Source: Candidatus Fermentithermobacillaceae bacterium
GTDB lineage: Bacteria > Bacillota > Sulfobacillia > Fermentithermobacillales > Fermentithermobacillaceae
Direction of reading: 5' to 3'
Length of the DNA: 64,000 nt
NCBI GenBank assembly: GCA_018052475.1
Contig: JAGPNG010000007.1
Location: 2,588-66,587 of the forward strand
Of this stretch, positions 7,727 through 20,977 are shown one piece after another (within the stretch, counting starts at the first letter, position 1; each line of letters starts with the position of its first letter). The notes beneath the pieces were generated by a model. The model worked only from the letters and a program-made list of their open reading frames with translations. It did no database searches and was not told the origin of the DNA. Made by a program: the position numbers and the translations under genes.

Positions 7727-9382
7727 TTAGTCTTTTCTGCTGCCTTTACGCGTATCAAACTTGCGCATCTTGTTTATCGCCGTAGTGTGGGATATGCCCA
7801 AAGCGCTCCCAATCTGTCTGGAAGAATAGTAAACCTTGGAAGCTTGTGCAATGTAATGGGCTTCAATCTTTTCTAATAGCTCCGGTAGGTCCACAGGCAG
7901 TTTATCTGGCAGATAAAAGAGAGATTCGCTCCTTTTTTGTTCGGGTTCATCTGTTAGACTCCGAGATAGGTCTAAGAGGGCGTCTGGCTCTCGGAACGCT
8001 GATGCCGAGGGAACACTTTCTATGACTAGATGCGTCGCATCAATTTCTTCTGAGGCGAGTATTGCTGCCCTTTGAATCACGTTTTGAAGCTCGCGGACGT
8101 TTCCGGGCCAGCCATGGTCCAAAAGTCTGGCTATGGCGTTTTGACTCAACCTTAAGTCTGGTTTGCCAAGTTCTCTTGCCATGGTATTTACGAAATGTTC
8201 TGCCAGTAAAGGAATATCTTCTTTCCTGCTCCTAAGAGGAGGGATCCAGATAGGGATGACATTTAGTCTGTAGAACAGATCTTCTCGGAAAGTACCGTCG
8301 TTCATCATCTGCTCAAGTTCTTTGTTGGTTGCCGATACTATTCGGATATCGATTTTTATCTCTTGGCGTCCGCCTACACGTCGAATGCGTTGCTCCTGGA
8401 GCGCCCTTAAGATCTTGGCTTGGAGCGGGGGGGAGAGATCTCCAACTTCATCCAGAAAAAGCGTTCCATGGGTTGCTAGTTCAAGTAGCCCTTGTTTACC
8501 ACCGGATGAAGCGCCTGTGAATGCGCCTCGCTCATAACCGAAAAACTCGCTTTCAAGAAGGGAATCAGGTATCGCGGCGCAGTTTACCGTCACAAACGGA
8601 CCTTTCCTTCGAGATGAGTTCTTATGGATCGCTCGGGCGAAAAGCTCTTTGCCCGTACCGCTTTCCCCCCTGAGCATCACGCTCATATTAGTGGGGGCCA
8701 CGGTCTTGGCGAGATTTATAGCATTTGTAAATACCTGGCTTTCCCCTATTATATCTTCGAAGTCTATTAGCGAAGGCCCGCTTACCGACTGAATGAGCTG
8801 ACGGACGTCGTCTAGTTCGCGAAATATTATGAGCGCTCCTGCGGGGATGCCTTCTTCATTTGTGATAGTCCGTACGCTGGTTAGAACCCGGGTACTTTTC
8901 CCTTGCCATGTTACTGTTACTTCAATGTTATCTCTGTCCTCATCTAGCGACAAGGCTGGTTCGAAGTCCCTGCTCTTAAAGATCCCTTCTAGATTGGGCT
9001 GCCCTTTTTCAGGGATTCCTAGCATGTCTCTTGCTTTTTTGCTGAAATACGTAACAGTCCCTGACTGGTCAACGACTATGATACCTTCGCTGATGTTGTC
9101 GCCTATAACATCGAGAGTGGTTTCTTTCTTCTCGTATTCCATTATGTCGACTTCAATTATCTCGCCTATATCTACTACATGAGATTTCAGTTGGCGTGTA
9201 AGAGTCGCCCATGAAAGGTCTGAGGGCCATTGAACTTTGAAGTATATATGAGGGGGATTGACTTCAATGTTGAGTACATTTATCCCAAGATTGCTAACAG
9301 TCTTGAGGATGTCATAGACCATCCCTACTCGGTTTTGAGCCCCTGTGAATCTTAGTCGTTTTATCTTGTGGCTTCTATCCAA
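7727..9382 (-). CDS. TyrR-like sigma-54-dependent activator (ACT, PAS, AAA+ and HTH domains)
   Basis: 551 aa ORF with an N-terminal ACT-like region, a PAS region, GESGTGKE and GAFTGA motifs and a C-terminal HTH ([19 protein letters not shown]). The start is a TTG at 9382 preceded by a GGAGGGA ribosome-binding site. It is divergent from the tyrosine phenol-lyase gene. Confidence 0.8.
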
Positions 9383-9647: not shown

Positions 9648-11051
<1,404 letters not shown>

Positions 11052-11123: not shown

Positions 11124-11618
11124 TCAAGAAACTATGCTTGAAGAAAGGTTCTTGAGAACAGCGACGGAGACCGGTCGCTGTTCATAAGGCCAAGGCCACA
11201 GGTGCCTAGACGTTTTTGGGGGAAGCAATTTACCCGTTAGTCCGGCCGCAATTACAGTATCCTTTGTAACCGGTGAGATGGCTTGAGCCTTGGAACCGTC
11301 CCGTTCATCTGCGGTCAAAGAGGTTCCCCAGCTGGTTACCACTATCGCATCATCGTAATAATCCAGTAGGTATGCGGGAATGAACTGACATCCTAACGAT
11401 ACGAGTGCGCGAACTCGGTGATGCCCGTCAAGTATTATCATTGAGTTTACGTCAACGATTACTGGGTATTTGATCATGCCATCGCGCTCGATCTCTTGTG
11501 TGAGTTCAAGAACTCTATCGTTATCCACATTCTCATGTGATACCAGTTCCTTGTGGTGTACCAAAGCAAATGAGTACCGGCATGTTCCAGAACTGCAATA
11601 AGATTCGGGCTCTATCAC
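11124..11618 (-). CDS. ParB/Srx-fold protein; candidate free serine kinase (SerK-like) or other NTP-dependent enzyme
   Basis: Contains KYPVIVD...IILDGHHRVRAL, the ParB/sulfiredoxin core motif. The likely start is a GTG at 11618 preceded by AAAGGAGGG. It lies 70 nt downstream of trpB2 on the same strand, with no intervening terminator. Confidence 0.55.
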   Translation of the reverse strand: MIEPESYCSSGTCRYSFALVHHKELVSHENVDNDRVLELTQEIERDGMIKYPVIVDVNSMIILDGHHRVRALVSLGCQFIPAYLLDYYDDAIVVTSWGTSLTADERDGSKAQAISPVTKDTVIAAGLTGKLLPPKTSRHLWPWPYEQRPVSVAVLKNLSSSIVS

Positions 11619-11688
11619 TTTATTTACCCTCCTTTGCAGATTGTTGCCTTTTCGCCTGCATGACAACAGGTGAACGTTCAATCACATC

Positions 11689-13149
11689 TTACTCGTTGTT
11701 TCTTTGAGTCTTCGGTAGCGTGGCGAGCGCTTTATCTATCTCCGACTGAGGGTGCTTTACATTCGTTAGTTTCCCTTTGTGGTATTCATCATAGGCGCTC
11801 ATGTCAAAGTGCCCATGGCCGCTGAGTCCAAAGAGTATTGCCTTTTCCTCGCCTGTTTCTTTGCATTTAAGAGCCTCGTTTATTGCCACACGTATTGCAT
11901 GAGCTGATTCGGGAGCAGGGATGATGCCTTCGGACATTGCAAATAACTGAGCTGCTTCGAAAATCGCAAGCTGTTCTACCGCCCTTGCTTCTATCAGTCC
12001 ATTTTGCAAAAGTGCGCTGATTATTGGAGACATGCCGTGGTAGCGCAGACCTCCTGCGTGGATACCTGGCGGAACGAAATCATGGCCAAGGGTGTACATT
12101 TTCAGCGCAGGAACCATCCCTACGCTGTCTCCATAATCGTACGCGTATACTCCCCTTGTGAGTGTTGGGCAGGCTTCGGGCTCGACTGCGATTATTCTGG
12201 GAGATGAGGGACGCGGCGAATACGAATTCGAACATGCGTCATCAGTACCCTCTTTTTTGTGAGTAGTTGAAGACTTCATGCCTTTTAGCACGGGTTCCAG
12301 AAACGGAAAGGTGAGACCACCAAAATTACTCCCGCCGCCAGCGCAAGCGATGATTATGTCAGGAACATCTTCGGCTGCTTCCATCTGGGCCTTTGCTTCT
12401 AGACCTATTACTGTCTGATGCAAGAGAACGTGGTTTAAAACGCTTCCAAGCGAATACTTTGTTCCGGGACTTCTGACTGTGTCTTCTACTGCTTCGCTTA
12501 TTGCTATTCCGAGGCTACCGGGGCAATTGGGATCGACCGCCAAAGCCTTTCTTCCTGATTCTGTCTTATCGCTTGGGCTTGGAATAACATCGGCGCCAAA
12601 TACTTGCATCAGCGAACGCCTATATGGTTTTTGTTCGTAACTCCTTTTCACCATGTATACTATGCATTCCATGTCAAAGAACGAACACGCCATAGCTAAC
12701 GCTGAGCCCCATTGGCCTGCTCCTGTTTCTGTGCATAGTCTGCGTGTACCCTCTTGCTTGTTGTAATAAGCTTGTGCTACTGCTGTATTAGGCTTGTGAC
12801 TTCCTACAGGACTGGTCCCTTCATATTTGAAGTAAATCCTGGCAGGGGTATCCAGTGCCTTTTCGAGTCGCGTCGCCCGGTAAAGAGGAGTAGGCCTCCA
12901 CAGCCTATAGATGTCTAGGACCTCACCTGGGATGTCGATGGTTGGCTTTGTCGAGACTTCTTGTTCGATGACCGCCATGGGGAAGATAGCTGCCAAATCC
13001 TCGGGACCTGCTGGTTCCAAAGTATTTGGATTAAGAGGCGGCTCCAGTTGAAATGGTAGATCTGACAAGATGTTGTACCAACATGTAGACATATCCTTTT
13101 CATCCAAAACATACTTGACTCTCTTTTTACTTCCGACTTGCTTTTCCAT
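11689..13149 (-). CDS. trpB: Tryptophan synthase beta chain, TrpB2 type
   Basis: 486 aa [17 protein letters not shown] includes the PLP lysine, and GGGSNFGG is the TrpB glycine loop. The overall TrpB2 architecture carries an insertion of about 30 aa that is low in complexity ([26 protein letters not shown]). Confidence 0.8.
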
Positions 13150-13229
13150 TTGATTCTCTCCTTTCGTTCTACCCTCATGTTCGAATGCAACTAAATCGGT
13201 GGTCGGCTTCTAAATTGCTAGATATAATC

Positions 13230-13560
13230 AAAAAACCCGTCCTCTTCTCAGAGGACGGGTCATAGCCGTGGTGCCACCTCGATTGGATCTCTTCACGGGT
13301 CCGTCGGATGTCATGGACTTTAGGGTGCAAAGACACCCAAGACACCAGGCGGAGTTCAGGGATCCCTCTCGTCTGCAGATACGGGACTACACTTCGCGCA
13401 ATCATCTCTGAATGCAGTCCTTATATCCTTGCCCTTTTATCGGTGGGTTTCCGGCGGAACCTACTTGCTGCTACCCGTGTTTTCGCGTCCTTATAATGGC
13501 GACGGAATACTCTGGCGTTTTTCGTTCGGCACCGCTGCTCACGGGCCCATTCGGTCGCTC
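13230..13560 (-). ncRNA. T-box riboswitch leader (probably tRNA-Trp responsive) upstream of trpB2; the 5' boundary is approximate
   Basis: The minus strand carries a T-box sequence AATCGAGGTGGCACCACGG (about 13262-13286) that overlaps the 5' arm of a terminator hairpin CCCGTCCTC-tgagaa-GAGGACGGG followed by TTTTTT (13230-13259). This lies about 90 nt before the trpB2 start. The UGGC bulge would pair with a G73 discriminator, as in tRNA-Trp. A candidate specifier context GAAUGGG lies near 13546-13548. Confidence 0.6.
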
Positions 13561-13764
13561 CTTGCGGTGTCAGGCTTACACTGTCCCTGACTCGCTATAC
13601 CGACGGTGTTGCGCTTACTAGTCCCGATCATTGCGTTGGATTCAGTTATTTTGATGATGCTAGCATGTCATGTAGAGCGTTGTCAATATGTTTGGGGACG
13701 GTTTTGCGCTCATTCTGATTGGAAATATGTGCAAACCGTCCCCGTAATGCGTCGGGGCTTCGTT

Positions 13765-14364
13765 CTAGCCGAGGCCTAACCACTTAAGGAATATGAACTG
13801 GAAACGTCCTATTGCCGCCGATATACGGCCCATAACGGTGTTTCCAAAAGCTGCCCCAAAGGCAGCCATCATGAAGTAACGGCCGAGTTGTGAGGTGACT
13901 CCTGTGACTTTTCCTCTCTTAAAGGTCAGGAAGAAATAGCTTAGAGACAGGACCGTCCCAAGGAATACCACCCACGCGTCGAAAGAAGTCAAGTTTACCA
14001 TGGTTGCGGAGATCTGCTCGACGATCTGACTTTCTACGGCGCCTCTCATAGCAACGCCTGCTCCTGTTCCCATAAGGAAAGACAGCGGGATGCGGTTCAG
14101 CCATGCGACGCTCTCAAAGTAACGGGAGTAAAGAAGTAGGCCTAGGAGAATAGGCACTATGAGTAGATAGTTCCCACCAATCATAGGACTCCATGCCGAG
14201 TTCAAGAACGTATTCACACCCACAACAACTGCAATCCCTGCTGACGCTCCTACGAAGATGTGCTCGATCATAGTATAAAATGGGTTATCTTTGATAAGAA
14301 CTGAATAGATAGCAATAGCAGCTAACGCTCCTATCCACACTCCTATGTCAGTCGAGATCTTCAT
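13765..14364 (-). CDS. Integral membrane protein, unknown function (4th gene of the membrane operon)
   Basis: 199 aa ORF, hydrophobic throughout with glycine-rich helices. Its start overlaps the stop of the upstream gene. Confidence 0.55.
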   Translation of the reverse strand: MKISTDIGVWIGALAAIAIYSVLIKDNPFYTMIEHIFVGASAGIAVVVGVNTFLNSAWSPMIGGNYLLIVPILLGLLLYSRYFESVAWLNRIPLSFLMGTGAGVAMRGAVESQIVEQISATMVNLTSFDAWVVFLGTVLSLSYFFLTFKRGKVTGVTSQLGRYFMMAAFGAAFGNTVMGRISAAIGRFQFIFLKWLGLG

Positions 14365-15227
14365 TTGACCCCACCTCCAGCATTATATGACTTGGATTTG
14401 GGCTCTTTTCGTCCGCTTACGAACATGCCAATATTGCCTAGAAGTACAAAAACCACTATCAGAACGTGGGCGATGGACTGAGCGTCCATACCTACGGTTC
14501 CGGTGCCCTTTTTGCCTGTAAGTTTTTCGTACTCAGCGGCTGCTCTTAGCCCCGCGAGTATTCCTTTGCATTGCCCTGATTGGACATAGGTTTCATTGCT
14601 GGCAGCCAGGACTCCGGTAACCCCCATGATCAGTGGGGTTCCGTAAGCCATAACTGCCTGCCTTACCCACTCATGGGTTCCCGTTCCGCCGGTCGGCCCG
14701 TCGTTGAGCGTCATAGCCATCGCGAAATCCTTCATTGTGCTCACTTCTTGCATTATAGGCAGGGAATCAATGCTGGTGCCTCGCCAGTCCTTCGGAAAGA
14801 CCGATGCCGGATTTTGGGCGAAAGCAGCCAGCGTAGGTTCACCTCCGGCATAATAGCCTAAGTTGACGTAGTCAACGCCGTATTCATACCCGTATTCCTC
14901 CAGGATTGCCATGCATTCATCAGCAAAGGTAGGACCTGCGGGAAATGATGCTATAGCCACTACCTTGATTTTCTTTGAAGCCAACTGATGCATGATAGCC
15001 TGAGCTATTGGGTTAAGGTCTATCTCGTCTCCCGGTTCGTAGTCAAACCCTATGACGACTATAGAACCATCGGGAAGACTGCTTACAAAGTCATAGACTC
15101 TTTGGACCGGCTCAGTTACATCAATAGGCAATCCAATGGGGTGAATAGTAGGGATAGCGATAGCAAGGGCCATAAGAAGGTAGAACACGCGTTTATCTAG
15201 GTTCTGTAGCTTTTCAAATATGTCCAC
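14361..15227 (-). CDS. Membrane-anchored protein with a large extracytoplasmic domain, unknown function (3rd gene)
   Basis: 288 aa ORF with N- and C-terminal hydrophobic segments flanking a soluble domain of about 200 aa. No recognisable catalytic motif. Confidence 0.55.
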   Translation of the reverse strand: MDIFEKLQNLDKRVFYLLMALAIAIPTIHPIGLPIDVTEPVQRVYDFVSSLPDGSIVVIGFDYEPGDEIDLNPIAQAIMHQLASKKIKVVAIASFPAGPTFADECMAILEEYGYEYGVDYVNLGYYAGGEPTLAAFAQNPASVFPKDWRGTSIDSLPIMQEVSTMKDFAMAMTLNDGPTGGTGTHEWVRQAVMAYGTPLIMGVTGVLAASNETYVQSGQCKGILAGLRAAAEYEKLTGKKGTGTVGMDAQSIAHVLIVVFVLLGNIGMFVSGRKEPKSKSYNAGGGVK

Positions 15228-15239
15228 TTATTATCCCCC

Positions 15240-15863
15240 CTATTCTCCGCCGTAGGAACGGCGTTCTAGCCCTATAATGATCCTCAAAGACACAGCTATA
15301 AAACCTATGGCGCCTGCAATCATGACTCCACGCTGCCCACCTACGTTCAAAACTGACATGATCCAGTCGGTAGCGGGAACAGAAAAAGGTAGAATCTTGG
15401 CGCCCAAAGGAACCCTACCTAACATTACAATACAACCTGTTATGAGAAGGATGGCAGCTTCTGCGTTCTTGGCTCGGAAAGCTCTATAGGCCGCTGTTCC
15501 AATGTAGAACGCCAGCAACGAAAAGATCGCGCTGCCAGTAGGCACGTTTATATAGTCGAAAATGAACTTGTACGCGCTAGAGTCTTGTCCCAGAAACACC
15601 CCTGTGATTATTGTGATGGCAAATGTCACTAGGAGCGCTATGCTGTATATGCTCTTGCCCTTGTCTTTTCCTATGTTGTTAACATGAACTCTAATGATGT
15701 TAATGGCCCCAAGACCTAGGGCGAAAATCGCGATAACCGATTGCCACTTGAGAATATTTTGTGCGGTAGACTGCACGAAAGGTATGTTGAAGAAGTATGC
15801 TATTGCTACAGTTATTCCGCACACAAAGGCAATTATCGTCGGAAGCGTTTTCCTCATTAACAT
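15240..15863 (-). CDS. Integral membrane protein, unknown function (2nd gene)
   Basis: 207 aa polytopic hydrophobic ORF, 12 nt after the preceding gene. Confidence 0.55.
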   Translation of the reverse strand: MLMRKTLPTIIAFVCGITVAIAYFFNIPFVQSTAQNILKWQSVIAIFALGLGAINIIRVHVNNIGKDKGKSIYSIALLVTFAITIITGVFLGQDSSAYKFIFDYINVPTGSAIFSLLAFYIGTAAYRAFRAKNAEAAILLITGCIVMLGRVPLGAKILPFSVPATDWIMSVLNVGGQRGVMIAGAIGFIAVSLRIIIGLERRSYGGE

Positions 15864-15887
15864 GGACGCTCACCTCCTTGTGAGTGC

Positions 15888-16652
15888 TCATTTTGCCATC
15901 AGCGTTTTTATCCCCGTAGAGCCGAGAGTAACAGAAACTGCGCCGATTATCATCAATCCGATTGAGACTGCTTTTATAATATCTTCCGCACGAAGACTTC
16001 CAAGGTGGAGTTCGTTTTTGGCAAAATGCGCACTTGCTGCGAACATCTCGTCACCCAGGATAACGTAGTCACATGCTACGACAAAGAATGGGATTTGATA
16101 TGCGTTGGTGGTCCCGGCGATCTGAATTGCGCCGACAGTGTTACCGGCTTCAGCCAGAATAAGGGCTTCTGCCGCAAACTGACCGATCATTATGTTTGAT
16201 GCTACTTGCTCTCTTAGGAGCACGCCGATGACGCCACTTGCATAGGCCCACTGGTCGCTTGATATAAAGCGGCAATCCTCCGGCCTATATGCCTCAGGTT
16301 TTCCAGCCTCGAGGTAGCTTTGCCTCATGACTTGTTCCGTAACCGCGTATGTTTCCGGCTGTGAGACAGTTACTATCAGCCGGACGTCATATTGAGCAGA
16401 GAGCTTCGCAACATATCCCAAGACTTCCAGTCCTGCAAAGGTCGCGGCCACCAACCCGCCGAACCCCGGAGTGAAATGAACCGGTTTTCCCATTTCGGCT
16501 GCCCTACCTACGGCCTCTTCGATTGCATCAAAACCAGGAATTGGACGTACAGTCACCTTCATGCCTTTCTTCGCAAGATACATGTACACACACATCAATC
16601 CGGTCATGAAAAGGAGTGTCCAAAAATCGAATATCCTGTTTTCAACAAACAT
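15888..16652 (-). CDS. Membrane protein with central soluble domain, unknown function (1st gene)
   Basis: 254 aa ORF with an N-terminal transmembrane segment, a soluble region of about 170 aa and a C-terminal transmembrane segment. Same strand and tight spacing with the next three genes. Confidence 0.55.
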   Translation of the reverse strand: MFVENRIFDFWTLLFMTGLMCVYMYLAKKGMKVTVRPIPGFDAIEEAVGRAAEMGKPVHFTPGFGGLVAATFAGLEVLGYVAKLSAQYDVRLIVTVSQPETYAVTEQVMRQSYLEAGKPEAYRPEDCRFISSDQWAYASGVIGVLLREQVASNIMIGQFAAEALILAEAGNTVGAIQIAGTTNAYQIPFFVVACDYVILGDEMFAASAHFAKNELHLGSLRAEDIIKAVSIGLMIIGAVSVTLGSTGIKTLMAK

Positions 16653-16876
16653 TTTCGTTCACCTCCGTTCTTTTGCGTTCTTTGAACTTCGGGATTCATA
16701 TTCGACAGTATTAGACATAATCCTGCAAGAGATTGTAAGCGTAGGAGCTCACCACCAGGAGCCGTCTAGGCGATCAAATGACAGGGGATCTCATACGAAC
16801 CGGTCGAACTGTTCGAGTTGACCGGTTTTGTGAAGTGGATATAGACTTAGGTAGAGGCAGGTATCTTGCGAATTGA

Positions 16877-17656
16877 TTGGAGGTGAGTGAATTGGACAAT
16901 AGGGAACTTGCGGAGCAGTTGGAAAAGATTTTGCGACTGGACACTATGCCGGTAGCCATGAAATTTTACGAAGACAGAAAAGACTTGCCTAGGGAGCCGC
17001 TGAATTTCAAACTGAATCTGTGCCAATTGGTATCCATGGCGCGGTATCAGGGTAGGACCAATTCGGGTGTGCCAGATATGATGATATGTGCAATGGGAGC
17101 GGCGTGCACCGGATTGATCAAGACCCCTAGCGACATAGAGTCTGGGCAAGCGGCTGTAGGAGCGTATTGTAAGGATATTGAAGCTGGCAAAAAATTTATG
17201 GAAAACACGTTTAAATTGGGTGATTCGGGTAAGGTCTATGATGCGGTATTAGTCAGTCCTTTGGCAAATGCGAAATTTGAGCCCGATGTTGTGATTATTT
17301 ACTCAAACCCGGCACAAACAATGAGGTTGATTCATGGTTGCGTGTACGATAACGGCGAAAAAGTAAAAGCAGATACTGTAGCAGAAGCAGCGATGTGTTC
17401 GTGCACCGGATACGTTCTTGCTAAGAAAGAACCAATAGTTGGATTTCCTTGCGCAGGCGACAGGATTTTCGGTGGAACCCAGAATTGTGAACTAGTATTT
17501 GCTGCCCCTTATGAACTCGTAAGAGACAAACTTATCGAGAACCTTGAGATGACGGCCAAAGGCGGGTTTTCAGTTTATCCCGTGCCCCCCAATATGTTCT
17601 GGACACCGTCTATGCCACCTTCTTACACTATTACAGAAGAGAAACTCAAGGGGTAG
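16877..17656 (+). CDS. DUF169-family protein
   Basis: 259 aa ORF whose cysteine pattern and length are typical of the DUF169 family found in anaerobes and archaea. It is preceded by a GGAGGTGAG ribosome-binding site. Confidence 0.5.
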   Translation: MEVSELDNRELAEQLEKILRLDTMPVAMKFYEDRKDLPREPLNFKLNLCQLVSMARYQGRTNSGVPDMMICAMGAACTGLIKTPSDIESGQAAVGAYCKDIEAGKKFMENTFKLGDSGKVYDAVLVSPLANAKFEPDVVIIYSNPAQTMRLIHGCVYDNGEKVKADTVAEAAMCSCTGYVLAKKEPIVGFPCAGDRIFGGTQNCELVFAAPYELVRDKLIENLEMTAKGGFSVYPVPPNMFWTPSMPPSYTITEEKLKG

Positions 17657-17783: not shown

Positions 17784-18653
17784 ATGGATGTGACAGGCTT
17801 AATCTCTAGTTTGTTTTGGATCATACTTATTGGGAGCACCTTGTTGGGGCCGTTTTTCACCCAAAGGCGGCTTGAAGCAATGAGATTGACTCTGATGGGA
17901 CGAATGCAGAAAAAACGAGGTTCCCGGGTGATTACTCTTATTCACAGGCAAGAAGCTCTGAGCCTTCTGGGGATTCCTCTGAGCAAGTATATAGACATCG
18001 AAGATTCCGAGCAAGTTCTCAGGGCAATACGTATGACTCCAGATGATGTTCCAATTGACCTTATAGTCCACACTCCCGGTGGCCTTGTCTTAGCTGCGGA
18101 ACAGATAGCGCTGGCACTGGTTAGGCATAAGGCAAAAGTTACCGTGTTCGTCCCTCACTACGCCATGTCCGGTGGCACTTTGCTTGCTCTTGCTGCGGAC
18201 GAAATAGTAATGGATGAAAACGCTGTTTTGGGTCCCGTTGATCCGCAGATAGGTTCTTACCCTGCCGCATCCATACTTAGCGTGATAGAGAGAAAGCCTA
18301 TCGAAAATGTAGATGACAACACCCTAATTTTGGCGGACATTGCCGAAAAGGCTATTTCACAAGTTAGAGAAACGGTGTTAGGTATATTGAGGAATAGTCT
18401 TGCCGAGCAAGAGGCAGAAGAAGTGGCTGATCTTTTCACCAAGGGATATTTCACCCATGATTATCCTTTGGGTGCAACTAAACTCCAGGCAATGGGTCTA
18501 AAGGTTTCGTTTGATATGCCGACCGAAGTGTATAAATTAATGGAGCTTTATCCGCAGGCATCGGCTAACAGGCCTTCGGTTGGATACGTTCCAATGCCAT
18601 ACAAAGCTGAGCCGGCGCGCGAGAAGTCAGGCCATAAGTCCATTCAAACCTAA
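17784..18653 (+). CDS. SDH-family (ClpP/S49-like) membrane-anchored serine protease
   Basis: An N-terminal transmembrane segment is followed by HTPGGLVLAAEQIALAL...HYAMSGGTLLALAADEIV, characteristic of the serine dehydrogenase proteinase / SppA-like fold. Confidence 0.6.
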   Translation: MDVTGLISSLFWIILIGSTLLGPFFTQRRLEAMRLTLMGRMQKKRGSRVITLIHRQEALSLLGIPLSKYIDIEDSEQVLRAIRMTPDDVPIDLIVHTPGGLVLAAEQIALALVRHKAKVTVFVPHYAMSGGTLLALAADEIVMDENAVLGPVDPQIGSYPAASILSVIERKPIENVDDNTLILADIAEKAISQVRETVLGILRNSLAEQEAEEVADLFTKGYFTHDYPLGATKLQAMGLKVSFDMPTEVYKLMELYPQASANRPSVGYVPMPYKAEPAREKSGHKSIQT

Positions 18654-18718: not shown

Positions 18719-20977
18719 TTATGTCCTGCAAGGCCGCTCTAGGATCGCCATCGCGTAAGGGCGAAGCTTGACCGTACGGCTTACTGCGGTTCCGGTCAAG
18801 AGATCGGTGTAAACGTTATCGTCTAGAGGAACTACTTTTGGTGACGAATCGAAATTCGATACAAACACGTAATCTTTCTGTCCATCGGTTCTCAACTGTG
18901 CTGTTACACCGTACGGAAGATCGGTGTCAATGGCCCTTTCCAGATGTACACCTTCTTGGTATAGGTCTTGGATCAAGGCATTGTAAAAGTCTTGCAGAAA
19001 CTCTTTGTTATTTCTAAACGCTATGTAGTAGCATTCGCCTTTTCCCAAGTGATTTACGGTGACAGCGGGTCTTCCCGCATAAAAGTCGGATGTGTAAACT
19101 GCGATAGGTTTGGCAGTTTCACAGTGGATAAGGTCGCAAAACACACGCGCCTCGTAATTCTTCTCAATGGCGTTGCCTTCTTTTACCTGTTCCTCTTTGC
19201 CATTAAGCACAGCGTCCGGTCTTACATCGTGAAGGAAACTCACGTGATTTACGTCATCATCATAGAGACAGTCAATCTCTTCTGACCATATTCCTGTAAC
19301 TTTTCGAAGAGGCCCTGGAAATCCACCTAGGAAGCATAGATCGTTTTCATCGACCATTCCGCTTAAGTAGGTAGTCACGAATATGCCACCTTTTTGCACA
19401 AACTCCTCAATCCTGCTGCCTACTCCGGTTCTTACCATGTACAGCATGGGAGCAACCAATATGTCGTATTTCGAGAAGTCACAATCCATATTTACCACGT
19501 CCACAGGGATTCCGTTCTCCCAGAAGGTTCTGTAATGGCTTTGACAGGTTTCGAAGTAGTCTTTTCTGTCTCTCCTAGGCCCAATAGATGTACTTATTGC
19601 CCACGAGTTTTCCCAGTCATAGATGACGGCGACCTTAGGGCATACCGAAGTCCCGAGGACTGGCGTTAACTTGGAAAGAACATCTCCTACTTGTGTTACA
19701 TCCCGGAAAACCCTTGTGTTTTCGTGTCCGCAGTGGTCTACAACTGCCCCGTGGAGTTTTTCGTAACCACCTCTGCTTTTTCGCCATTGAAAGTACTGGA
19801 CTGTATCGGACCCATGAGCGATGGCTTGAAGCGATGATAAAACGTGCATCCCGGGTCTTCTGAGTTTTCCAACAGGCTGCCAATTGGTGGAGCTTGGGGA
19901 ACTCTCCATCATGGCAAATGGTCTTCCTTGCTTCAAGGACCGGTTTATGTCGTGGATAAAGGCGCGTCTACCGCCTTCAACTGGGTCAGGCCGTTCGCCA
20001 TGCCAATATGGGTAGTTGTCCCACGAGACAAAATCTACATGTGGGGCAAACTTCCAGTAATCTATTCCGTTTTCGATGTCAACGAAGTCATCAAAGTTGG
20101 TGGTAACAGGTATATCTGGAGTAATCTTTCGCAGGGGTTCTATCTCATGCTTGAAAAAGTCAATGGTTTGGTAGGTTGTGAATCGCTTCCAATCTAGGCT
20201 CAAGCCCATTATGGTGTGTTCACCGTGAGGAGCGGGAGACTCAATCTGGTTCCAATCGGTATACGAATGGCTCCAAAAAGACGTCCACCACGCTCTGTTG
20301 AGTTCGTCGAGGTCTTCGTGGTACTTTTCCTTGAGCCATCTGCGGAATTGGTCTTGACATAGTTCGCAGTGACACTGACCCCCATATTCATTTGAGACGT
20401 GCCACGCGATCAAGGCGGGGTGGTCTTTATACCGCTGTGCCAATTTGGCGTTTATGATCTGCACCTTTTCTCTGTATATAGGGGAGGTAAGGCAATGATT
20501 GTGTCGCCCTCCATGAAGATTTCGTACCCTGTTTTCCCTTACTCGAAGAACTTCTGGGTACTTCTGAGATAACCATGCAGGTCTTGCGGCGCTGGGTGTA
20601 GCAAGCATCACAGATATGCCATTTTCGTACATCTCATCCATAGTCCTATCTAGCCACGAAAAATCGAACTTGCCTTCTTCCTTTTCTATAGATGACCAGG
20701 CGAAAATGCCTATGCTCATCACGTTGCATCTAGAGAGTTTCATAAGGCGATAGTCTTCTTCAAGTATCTCAGGCATGTGCAACCATTGGTCAGGATTGTA
20801 GTCGGCACCGTGTAGAAAAAAAGGCGTTTTGCGGCTAATTGGAGGGTATTTCAAGGCGGTTCTGCAATCTGTGTTTTCGCTAGATATGTCGGGTTTGGTA
20901 GAATGACCACCAAACTCGCGATTATGGCTAGTGTTTTGGTCTATCCAAAACTGCTTTGGATCATGAGGGTAATTCAT
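18719..20977 (-). CDS. Glycoside hydrolase family 42 beta-galactosidase
   Basis: 752 aa ORF with GADYNPDQW near the N-terminus, a conserved Cys cluster (CHCELCQ) in the TIM-barrel region and the GH42 trimerisation and C-terminal domains. Confidence 0.75.
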   Translation of the reverse strand: MNYPHDPKQFWIDQNTSHNREFGGHSTKPDISSENTDCRTALKYPPISRKTPFFLHGADYNPDQWLHMPEILEEDYRLMKLSRCNVMSIGIFAWSSIEKEEGKFDFSWLDRTMDEMYENGISVMLATPSAARPAWLSQKYPEVLRVRENRVRNLHGGRHNHCLTSPIYREKVQIINAKLAQRYKDHPALIAWHVSNEYGGQCHCELCQDQFRRWLKEKYHEDLDELNRAWWTSFWSHSYTDWNQIESPAPHGEHTIMGLSLDWKRFTTYQTIDFFKHEIEPLRKITPDIPVTTNFDDFVDIENGIDYWKFAPHVDFVSWDNYPYWHGERPDPVEGGRRAFIHDINRSLKQGRPFAMMESSPSSTNWQPVGKLRRPGMHVLSSLQAIAHGSDTVQYFQWRKSRGGYEKLHGAVVDHCGHENTRVFRDVTQVGDVLSKLTPVLGTSVCPKVAVIYDWENSWAISTSIGPRRDRKDYFETCQSHYRTFWENGIPVDVVNMDCDFSKYDILVAPMLYMVRTGVGSRIEEFVQKGGIFVTTYLSGMVDENDLCFLGGFPGPLRKVTGIWSEEIDCLYDDDVNHVSFLHDVRPDAVLNGKEEQVKEGNAIEKNYEARVFCDLIHCETAKPIAVYTSDFYAGRPAVTVNHLGKGECYYIAFRNNKEFLQDFYNALIQDLYQEGVHLERAIDTDLPYGVTAQLRTDGQKDYVFVSNFDSSPKVVPLDDNVYTDLLTGTAVSRTVKLRPYAMAILERPCRT

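Follow-up and report, generated by a model that had tools for sequence, protein, structure and literature searches.

A strongly conserved four-gene membrane-protein cassette without characterised homologues, found mainly in uncultured bacteria

What do four tightly packed, unannotated membrane-protein genes do together? The question is raised by a 64,000-nucleotide stretch of a Candidatus Fermentithermobacillaceae genome (assembly GCA_018052475.1, contig JAGPNG010000007.1, positions 2,588 to 66,587; hereafter the window), in which the genes, here called A, B, C and D, form a cassette upstream of trpB2. A first-pass annotation had suggested that they might encode a novel multi-subunit transporter or membrane complex. 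The proposal of a conserved and apparently novel multi-subunit membrane assembly stood, no characterised family having been matched, whereas the term 'transporter' is itself drawn from the architecture of the predicted proteins. A–D are real genes that form an autonomous unit under strong conservation; their products have domains on both sides of the membrane and no characterised homologue.

All four genes lie on the minus strand, and their open reading frames and outer coordinates agreed with their initial description as co-directional, tightly packed membrane-protein genes. Gene A (16652..15888, 254 amino acids) is followed by B (15863..15240, 207 amino acids) after a gap of 24 nucleotides, and B by C (15227..14361, 288 amino acids, GTG start) after a gap of 12 nucleotides. 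The stop codon of C and the start codon of D (14364..13765, 199 amino acids) overlap by 4 nucleotides (ATGA), an overlap of the type known from translationally coupled genes. Shine-Dalgarno sites were found for A (GGAGG, 16666..16662, minus strand, 9 nucleotides 5′ of the gene), B (AAGGAGGTG), C (a G-run) and D (GGAGGTG, within the 3′ end of C). Compared with the relative at locus L018, A–D shared 94–96% protein identity, and nucleotide differences concentrated at the third codon position (~0.04, 0.02 and 0.30–0.42 at positions 1, 2 and 3, respectively, each gene behaving alike). A–D are therefore real proteins under strong purifying selection. Identical proteins were present in the database (KBI39_03540-03555, from Candidatus Fermentithermobacillaceae metagenome-assembled genomes (MAGs)), each labelled 'hypothetical protein'.

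The order A-B-C-D was invariant in 89/89 loci anchored on A or C, 80 of which were kept from a scan in which each GTDB species was represented by one genome and at least 579 relatives of C were found, and nine of which were reached through database homologues. These loci represented at least 14 phyla and came almost exclusively from MAGs or other uncultured bins. Carriers included Fermentithermobacillaceae and other Bacillota, WOR-3, Stahlbacteria, Eisenbacteria, Zixibacteria and 'Ignavibacteria' bins, as well as Cloacimonadota, Latescibacterota, Marinimicrobia, Fidelibacterota, Riflebacteria, Vulcanimicrobiota, Armatimonadota and Coatesbacteria. Identity between phyla was ~40%, and the family of C comprised 5,414 representatives (clustered at 50% identity) with E ≤ 1e-3 and 1,751 with E ≤ 1e-30. 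None of the 360 listed homologues came from a named cultured species; named entries were MAGs or candidate taxa, and most carried no name. No cassette matches were found in plasmid and phage collections. The cassette is a chromosomal, housekeeping-type system and is not mobile.

Duplication likewise copies the entire A-B-C-D set. Among loci L001-L085, 63 carried a single set and 14 a tandem repeat (10 complete ABCDABCD, four partial), the rest being cut by contig ends. Within tandem pairs, all four subunits had diverged in parallel (45–58% identity). Thus, the four genes are conserved as a unit, both in their fixed order and in their joint duplication. From the invariant order, the C/D start-stop overlap, the restriction of duplication to whole sets and the parallel divergence, we infer a physical complex with 1:1:1:1 stoichiometry, and A–D very probably form one complex that is independent of trpB2. 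Tandem A-B-C-D sets came mainly from Eisenbacteria-like genomes; whole-set duplicates or triplicates were seen at L001, L004, L020, L025, L027, L028, L030, L040, L041, L050, L076, L115 and L165.

Scans of A–D against Pfam and NCBIfam returned a single family, DUF6754 (PF20539), which A matched over its full length (282.5 bits, E = 3.3e-84, positions 6-254 of 257, gathering score 27) and which was present in all listed A homologues. The first-pass annotation could assign no recognisable ABC, MFS, PTS, permease or enzyme motif to the four proteins; A can be placed in DUF6754, although this family is itself uncharacterised. DUF6754 has no assigned function, its three partner proteins fall outside Pfam coverage, and the searchable literature contained no mention of DUF6754 or PF20539. 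Pfam scans of aligned B, C and D homologues (20–21 each, 62 sequences) gave scattered weak matches only. The one recurring among B homologues, TMD0_ABC (10/21, best E = 2e-4), was judged to be probable membrane-composition noise. Sequence-profile searches of the PDB with all four families returned nothing meaningful at E ≤ 1.

Specific transport and electron-transfer families fared no better. No ABC_tran or permease match was found for A–D at E ≤ 1, and membrane components of TRAP, TTT, PTS, MFS or ECF systems were absent from the Pfam and NCBIfam scans and from the scans of B, C and D homologues (E ≤ 1). B and D had no Pfam Rnf-Nqr match, A and C lack cofactor motifs, and the cassette contains no Rnf/Nqr partners. 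Neither C nor 19 of its homologues matched GldG/ABC_transp_aux (PF09822), and no ABC-2 genes were conserved beside the cassette.

A specialised role in sporulation or in anti-phage defence was also considered. The host lineage is predicted to sporulate, and one cassette (L089) lies among PIN, BrxC/BrxD and ADP-ribosylglycohydrolase genes, as a defence system might. However, no sporulation membrane family (SpoVA, SpoIIIA and similar) was matched in Pfam or NCBIfam, and the cassette is widespread outside Bacillota, including Zixibacteria, WOR-3, Eisenbacteria and Marinimicrobia, none of which, to our knowledge, forms endospores. PADLOC gave zero matches at E ≤ 0.1 for all four proteins, and the level of identity maintained between phyla, together with the absence from plasmids and phages, fits a housekeeping system rather than defence islands. 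Both roles are largely refuted and we give them hardly any credence. With no known transporter or sporulation family matched and the unit conserved, the cassette belongs, by the tests applied, to no known kind.

To what architecture do these sequences point? Topology was predicted from hydropathy profiles and lysine/arginine counts on family alignments, and from AlphaFold2 models of A and C. All four proteins have transmembrane segments (two helices in A, six in B, two in C and five to six in D) and two of them, A and C, have sizeable soluble domains (~190 and ~220 residues, respectively), as the first-pass annotation had described. Together, A–D would contribute ~16 helices and one alpha/beta domain to each face of the membrane.

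The protein of gene A consists of an N-terminal transmembrane helix, the soluble alpha/beta domain and a long C-terminal transmembrane helix. Its model (predicted local distance difference test score (pLDDT) 89.9) contains a six- to seven-stranded Rossmann-like alpha/beta domain. In diderm homologues, TM1 (the first transmembrane helix) is preceded by a signal peptide and either an fn3-like domain or a PQQ-type beta-propeller of 400-650 amino acids, which places the DUF6754 core in the cytoplasm. Across the family alignment, the 15 residues following TM1 contain 4.3 lysines/arginines. Invariant residues include R50, E53, E162, E168, Q186, C194, D195 and E202. When alignments were read against the model, conserved positions G63, G157/F159/E162, G180/T181 and G200/E202 fell at the C-terminal ends of beta-strands, a modelled placement that resembles ligand-binding Rossmann-like domains.

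C has a comparable helix-domain-helix layout, with a transmembrane helix at either end and both termini predicted to be cytoplasmic (3.4 and 4.2 lysines/arginines at the termini versus 1.1 and 0.4 at the domain flanks). Its model (pLDDT 84.8) contains a five-stranded alpha/beta domain. Within this domain, the homologue P0350 has a CARDB-containing insertion of roughly 600 amino acids, which puts the domain outside the cell. Asp, Tyr, Asn, Trp and Glu are frequent in the invariant motifs (DY, G.DYVNLGY, AAEYE and GMDAQS..H...GN). Four C homologues (P0350, P0342, P0376 and P0371) accept very large insertions at a single loop of the soluble domain, between the third helix and the DYVNLGY strand; these included the CARDB-containing type, long helical inserts and a second, tandem copy of the entire domain.

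The two remaining subunits are polytopic. B has six predicted transmembrane helices in an N-in/C-in arrangement, with positive charge in loops 2 and 4 and at both termini of the family alignment, and conserved motifs AYRAFRA..E and AGQR...GIER. D has an N-terminus almost devoid of lysines/arginines (0.1) and positive odd-numbered loops, and is probably N-out; its conserved motifs are KDNPFY..AEH, FGA.FG and ARISLLIGR.

Given this layout, we favour the reading that A–D are a translocation complex, tentatively and with somewhat less than even confidence. It draws on the 6+6 helix core, the external receptor-like domain, the internal ligand-binding-like domain, the occurrence of paralogous sets and the occasional TonB-system neighbours described below. 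In such a complex, B and D (~six helices each) would form a ~12-helix core in the cytoplasmic membrane, C, helix-anchored at both ends, would present its alpha/beta domain outside, and A, anchored likewise in the opposite sense, would present its own to the cytoplasm. The complex might then hand a small molecule or an envelope precursor across the membrane along a path provided by B/D. C would be the receptor or donor on the outside; on the inside, A would be an acceptor, a regulator or the site at which an energising partner docks. In many lineages other than this one, that partner could be an adjacent GlmL/MutL-type ASKHA ATPase module.

Several known systems share parts of this design. The GldG-type auxiliary subunit of ABC-2 systems has its extracytoplasmic alpha/beta domain framed by two terminal transmembrane helices, as C is predicted to have, and is likewise encoded with polytopic partners in lineages of the FCB group. 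This likeness is architectural: the cassette lacks an ABC ATPase and an ABC-2 permease, C has a much smaller domain (~220 amino acids), and there is no sequence match. TRAP (DctPQM) and TTT (TctABC) systems are also non-ABC, and in them two dissimilar integral membrane subunits are co-encoded with an external binding protein. However, no DctP, DctQ, DctM or Tct family was matched, their binding proteins are two-lobed whereas C has a single alpha/beta lobe, their membrane subunits are unequal (4+12 helices) whereas B and D are of equal size (6+6), and neither type has an equivalent of A, the fourth subunit, with its cytoplasmic domain. RnfA/RnfE, NqrD/NqrE and paired SMR proteins resemble B/D in length (~200 amino acids), helix number (~six) and opposite predicted orientations. 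B and D differ from the Rnf/Nqr pairs in lacking an Rnf/Nqr Pfam match, conserved cysteines and cofactor-binding partners.

Gene neighbourhoods offered one partner that recurred across lineages. This module comprises, in order, f20 (two transmembrane helices), f10 (small), f4 (~600 amino acids, Pfam MutL at E = 2e-123, a member of the GlmL family of ASKHA-fold ATPases) and f6 (~375 amino acids). It adjoined the cassette in 19/85 of loci L001-L085, from at least five phyla and in varying arrangements; in the reverse direction, A-B-C-D adjoined f4 in 18 of 38 f4-anchored metagenome loci of at least 12 kb. The module is highly conserved (56–62% mean column identity). Neither f4 nor f6 had a relative among PDB sequences or a characterised close relative, the module members were related neither to each other nor to the WOR-3 neighbour genes, and the searchable literature held nothing for PF13941 or for GlmL in combination with actin-like and membrane. 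Loci with both module and cassette included L001, L027, L033, L037, L039, L042, L066-L069, L090, L117-L119, L128-L134, L156-L158 and L165-L166, among others.

The strong two-way linkage to an ASKHA-fold ATPase and two small membrane proteins could also be expected of a signalling or anchoring platform, in which the external domain (C, plus the fn3 domain or propeller of A) is coupled to a cytoplasmic partner, possibly the GlmL-type actin-fold ATPase, and no substrate is moved. Extracytoplasmic and cytoplasmic domains are indeed joined via a membrane core, and no energy-coupling motif was found in the four proteins. On the other hand, none contains a known output domain (kinase, cyclase or DNA-binding), twelve conserved polytopic helices exceed the needs of an anchor, and in many genomes, as in the window, no ATPase module lies near the cassette. 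We consider a platform of this kind improbable.

The translocation reading must itself be set against several results that weigh against it. Contact among the A–D proteins is inferred from their genes. None of the four proteins contains an ATPase or nucleotide-binding motif, none resembles a Pfam or NCBIfam transporter family, and the 64-kb window contains no gene of the GlmL-type module. In B and D, the charged residues that are invariant lie, by inspection, at helix ends and in loops, not mid-helix, which makes these subunits unlike typical ion-coupled carriers. Foldseek searches of the PDB with the A and C models returned no match at E ≤ 1e-3, with TM-scores mostly <0.5. Finally, neighbours of the cassette were mostly unrelated housekeeping genes, which say little about a substrate.

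Some of these neighbours and weak structural matches bear on a different proposal, namely that A–D are a machine for envelope biogenesis or maintenance and not a nutrient transporter. In this scheme, the cytoplasmic domain of A would be an enzyme or would load a carrier, a lipid-linked or polymeric intermediate would be flipped or scaffolded by B/D, and C would process it or pass it on at the outer face. The best, non-significant Foldseek matches were single Rossmann halves of GT-B glycosyltransferases (BshA, UDP-GlcNAc 2-epimerase and OtsA for C; MurG for A), and the Asp-, Tyr-, Asn-, Trp- and Glu-rich conservation of C, together with the adhesion-type domains (fn3, beta-propeller, CARDB) on the outer face, would suit such a role. 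At L089, the gene overlapping D is Wzc-like (GNVR/ParA), and a beta-propeller protein with a Por secretion tail is encoded next; cassettes of Zixibacteria and WOR-3 have sugar-nucleotide and isomerase genes at their flanks. However, the structural matches were all generic (E > 1e-3, TM-scores 0.2–0.4), the weak hits of A and C being Rossmann-like at large and including universal stress proteins, transhydrogenase dIII and dehydrogenases besides the GT-B halves. Each envelope-related neighbour was restricted to one lineage, and the cassette occurs both in monoderm-type, spore-forming Bacillota and in diderm phyla, whose envelopes are very different. An envelope machine is somewhat unlikely, and translocation remains the reading that we prefer.

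Lineage-specific context was otherwise diverse. WOR-3 and Stahlbacteria cassettes neighboured DUF4388, ExbB-ExbD-TonB and a Plug-domain outer-membrane protein; those of Eisenbacteria neighboured LplA and Plug-domain or PorV-like proteins; and those of Zixibacteria neighboured PtsI and a PGI-like isomerase. DegV/FakA, LplA, glycine-cleavage, PtsI/PGI and TonB/ExbBD neighbours were each limited to one or two lineages. As a weak lead, glycine-cleavage genes were found near the module in 16/80 f4-anchored loci and in five A/C-anchored loci. By eye, conserved upstream families resembled gcvT, gcvH and gcvP, often directly 5′ of f10-f4 (gcv-type loci: L090, L096, L097, L116, L120-L130, L139, L146, L147, L159 and L161, as well as L027, L032, L040, L050 and L076), and a lipoate-protein ligase followed the cassette in Eisenbacteria. 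This context hints at a lipoyl or glycine theme, which may belong to one lineage. Since joint clusters of Eisenbacteria-like genomes lie near or between glycine-cleavage genes and lipoate-protein ligase, lipoate or a related acyl compound may be named, speculatively, as a substrate.

Could the cassette also be internally symmetric? In profile-profile comparisons of the six possible pairs, A-C (E = 0.017, 85 collinear columns) and B-D (E = 0.008, 96 columns) scored best. The hhalign probabilities were 2.6% for A-C and 5.1% for B-D, and one block shuffle in 30 reached the score of each pair. In the models of A and C, the first three beta-alpha units nearly coincide in position, and predicted topology is opposite within each pair. 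We regard relatedness within A-C and B-D as a hint and not as a result. Taken together with the module, it permits a conjecture to which we assign little probability: that A-B and C-D are ancient duplicates in opposite orientations, giving a pseudo-symmetric antiparallel heterotetramer with homologous Rossmann-like domains on both faces. With f20-f10-f4-f6, this assembly would make up a so far unrecognised class of translocase that is powered by an actin-fold ATPase and common among uncultured bacteria.

If A–D are a true four-subunit complex, they would rank among the larger conserved families of bacterial membrane machinery without an assigned function. Almost all carriers are uncultured, which may explain why the system has escaped study. 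Were its activity defined, metabolic and envelope models of these candidate phyla would be more complete. The architecture of the cassette may also be new among membrane proteins: alpha/beta domains that match would lie on either face, perhaps with an actin-fold ATPase as motor. The interest of the cassette rests on its breadth and complete lack of annotation, not on a mechanism in hand.

Within the window, does the position of the cassette say anything about its role? As the first-pass annotation noted, it lies transcriptionally upstream of a T-box/trpB2 unit on the same strand. Eight nucleotides past the stop codon of D is a GC-rich hairpin (CCCCG-8-CGGGG, 13740..13757, minus strand), which is at best a weak terminator marking the 3′ end of the operon, since it has no T-run. 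Between D and the T-box lies a promoter-like site (TTGACA-18-TAGCAT with extended TG, 13686..13657, minus strand). The T-box leader (13640..13248, minus strand) scored 75.9 bits (E = 8e-16) against an Rfam gathering score of 93, a sub-threshold value that we attribute to its large insertions; its specifier appears, from our reading of the alignment, to be UGG (Trp). The leader terminator (13261..13234, minus strand) is followed by trpB2 (13149..11689, minus strand; NF009057, 712 bits) and by a gene whose small ParB_N product is similar to the serine kinases SerK and SbnI (11681..11124, minus strand; E = 2e-15, far below the cut-off). The T-box, trpB2 and the SerK-like gene look like a unit for salvage of O-phosphoserine and indole to tryptophan under Trp-tRNA control.

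From this arrangement, A–D could be imagined to transport tryptophan, indole or serine for the adjacent unit, and the weak hairpin after D might allow some read-through into it. However, the T-box lies downstream of D and so cannot control A–D, and trpB2 is preceded by a promoter-like site and a leader of its own. Beside the cassette, homologues of trpB2, of the SerK-like gene and of the genes on its other side (DUF169, SDH protease, glycosidase) were found only at L006 and L018, the two nearest relatives, and at 0/87 of the other A/C-anchored loci. The adjacency to trpB2 is therefore incidental. The functional tie to T-box/trpB2 or DUF169 that had been proposed did not survive this comparison, and a tryptophan-linked transporter is contradicted by the evidence and extremely improbable. 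Annotation of the window should keep the cassette separate from the tryptophan T-box/trpB2 unit.

The region 5′ of A (16653..16876, minus strand) is a leader shared with a divergent DUF169 gene (16877..17656, plus strand). An Rfam search of 13000..17000, up to E = 1, found nothing except the T-box downstream of D, leaving the A leader unmatched. This leader also has no good sigma-70 match, the nearest on the minus strand (16991..16963, 9/12) lying within the DUF169 coding region. Beyond DUF169 are a divergent SDH-family ClpP-fold serine protease (17784..18653, plus strand; NF047768, 416 bits) and a predicted glycosidase (18719..20977). On the far side of the tryptophan unit, a beta-eliminating lyase (9678..11051, plus strand) scored as a tyrosine phenol-lyase (TIGR02618, 825.6 bits, cut-off 720.7) and not a tryptophanase, and a sigma-54-dependent activator of the PrdR/TyrR type (7727..9382, minus strand) is encoded upstream of it on the other strand.

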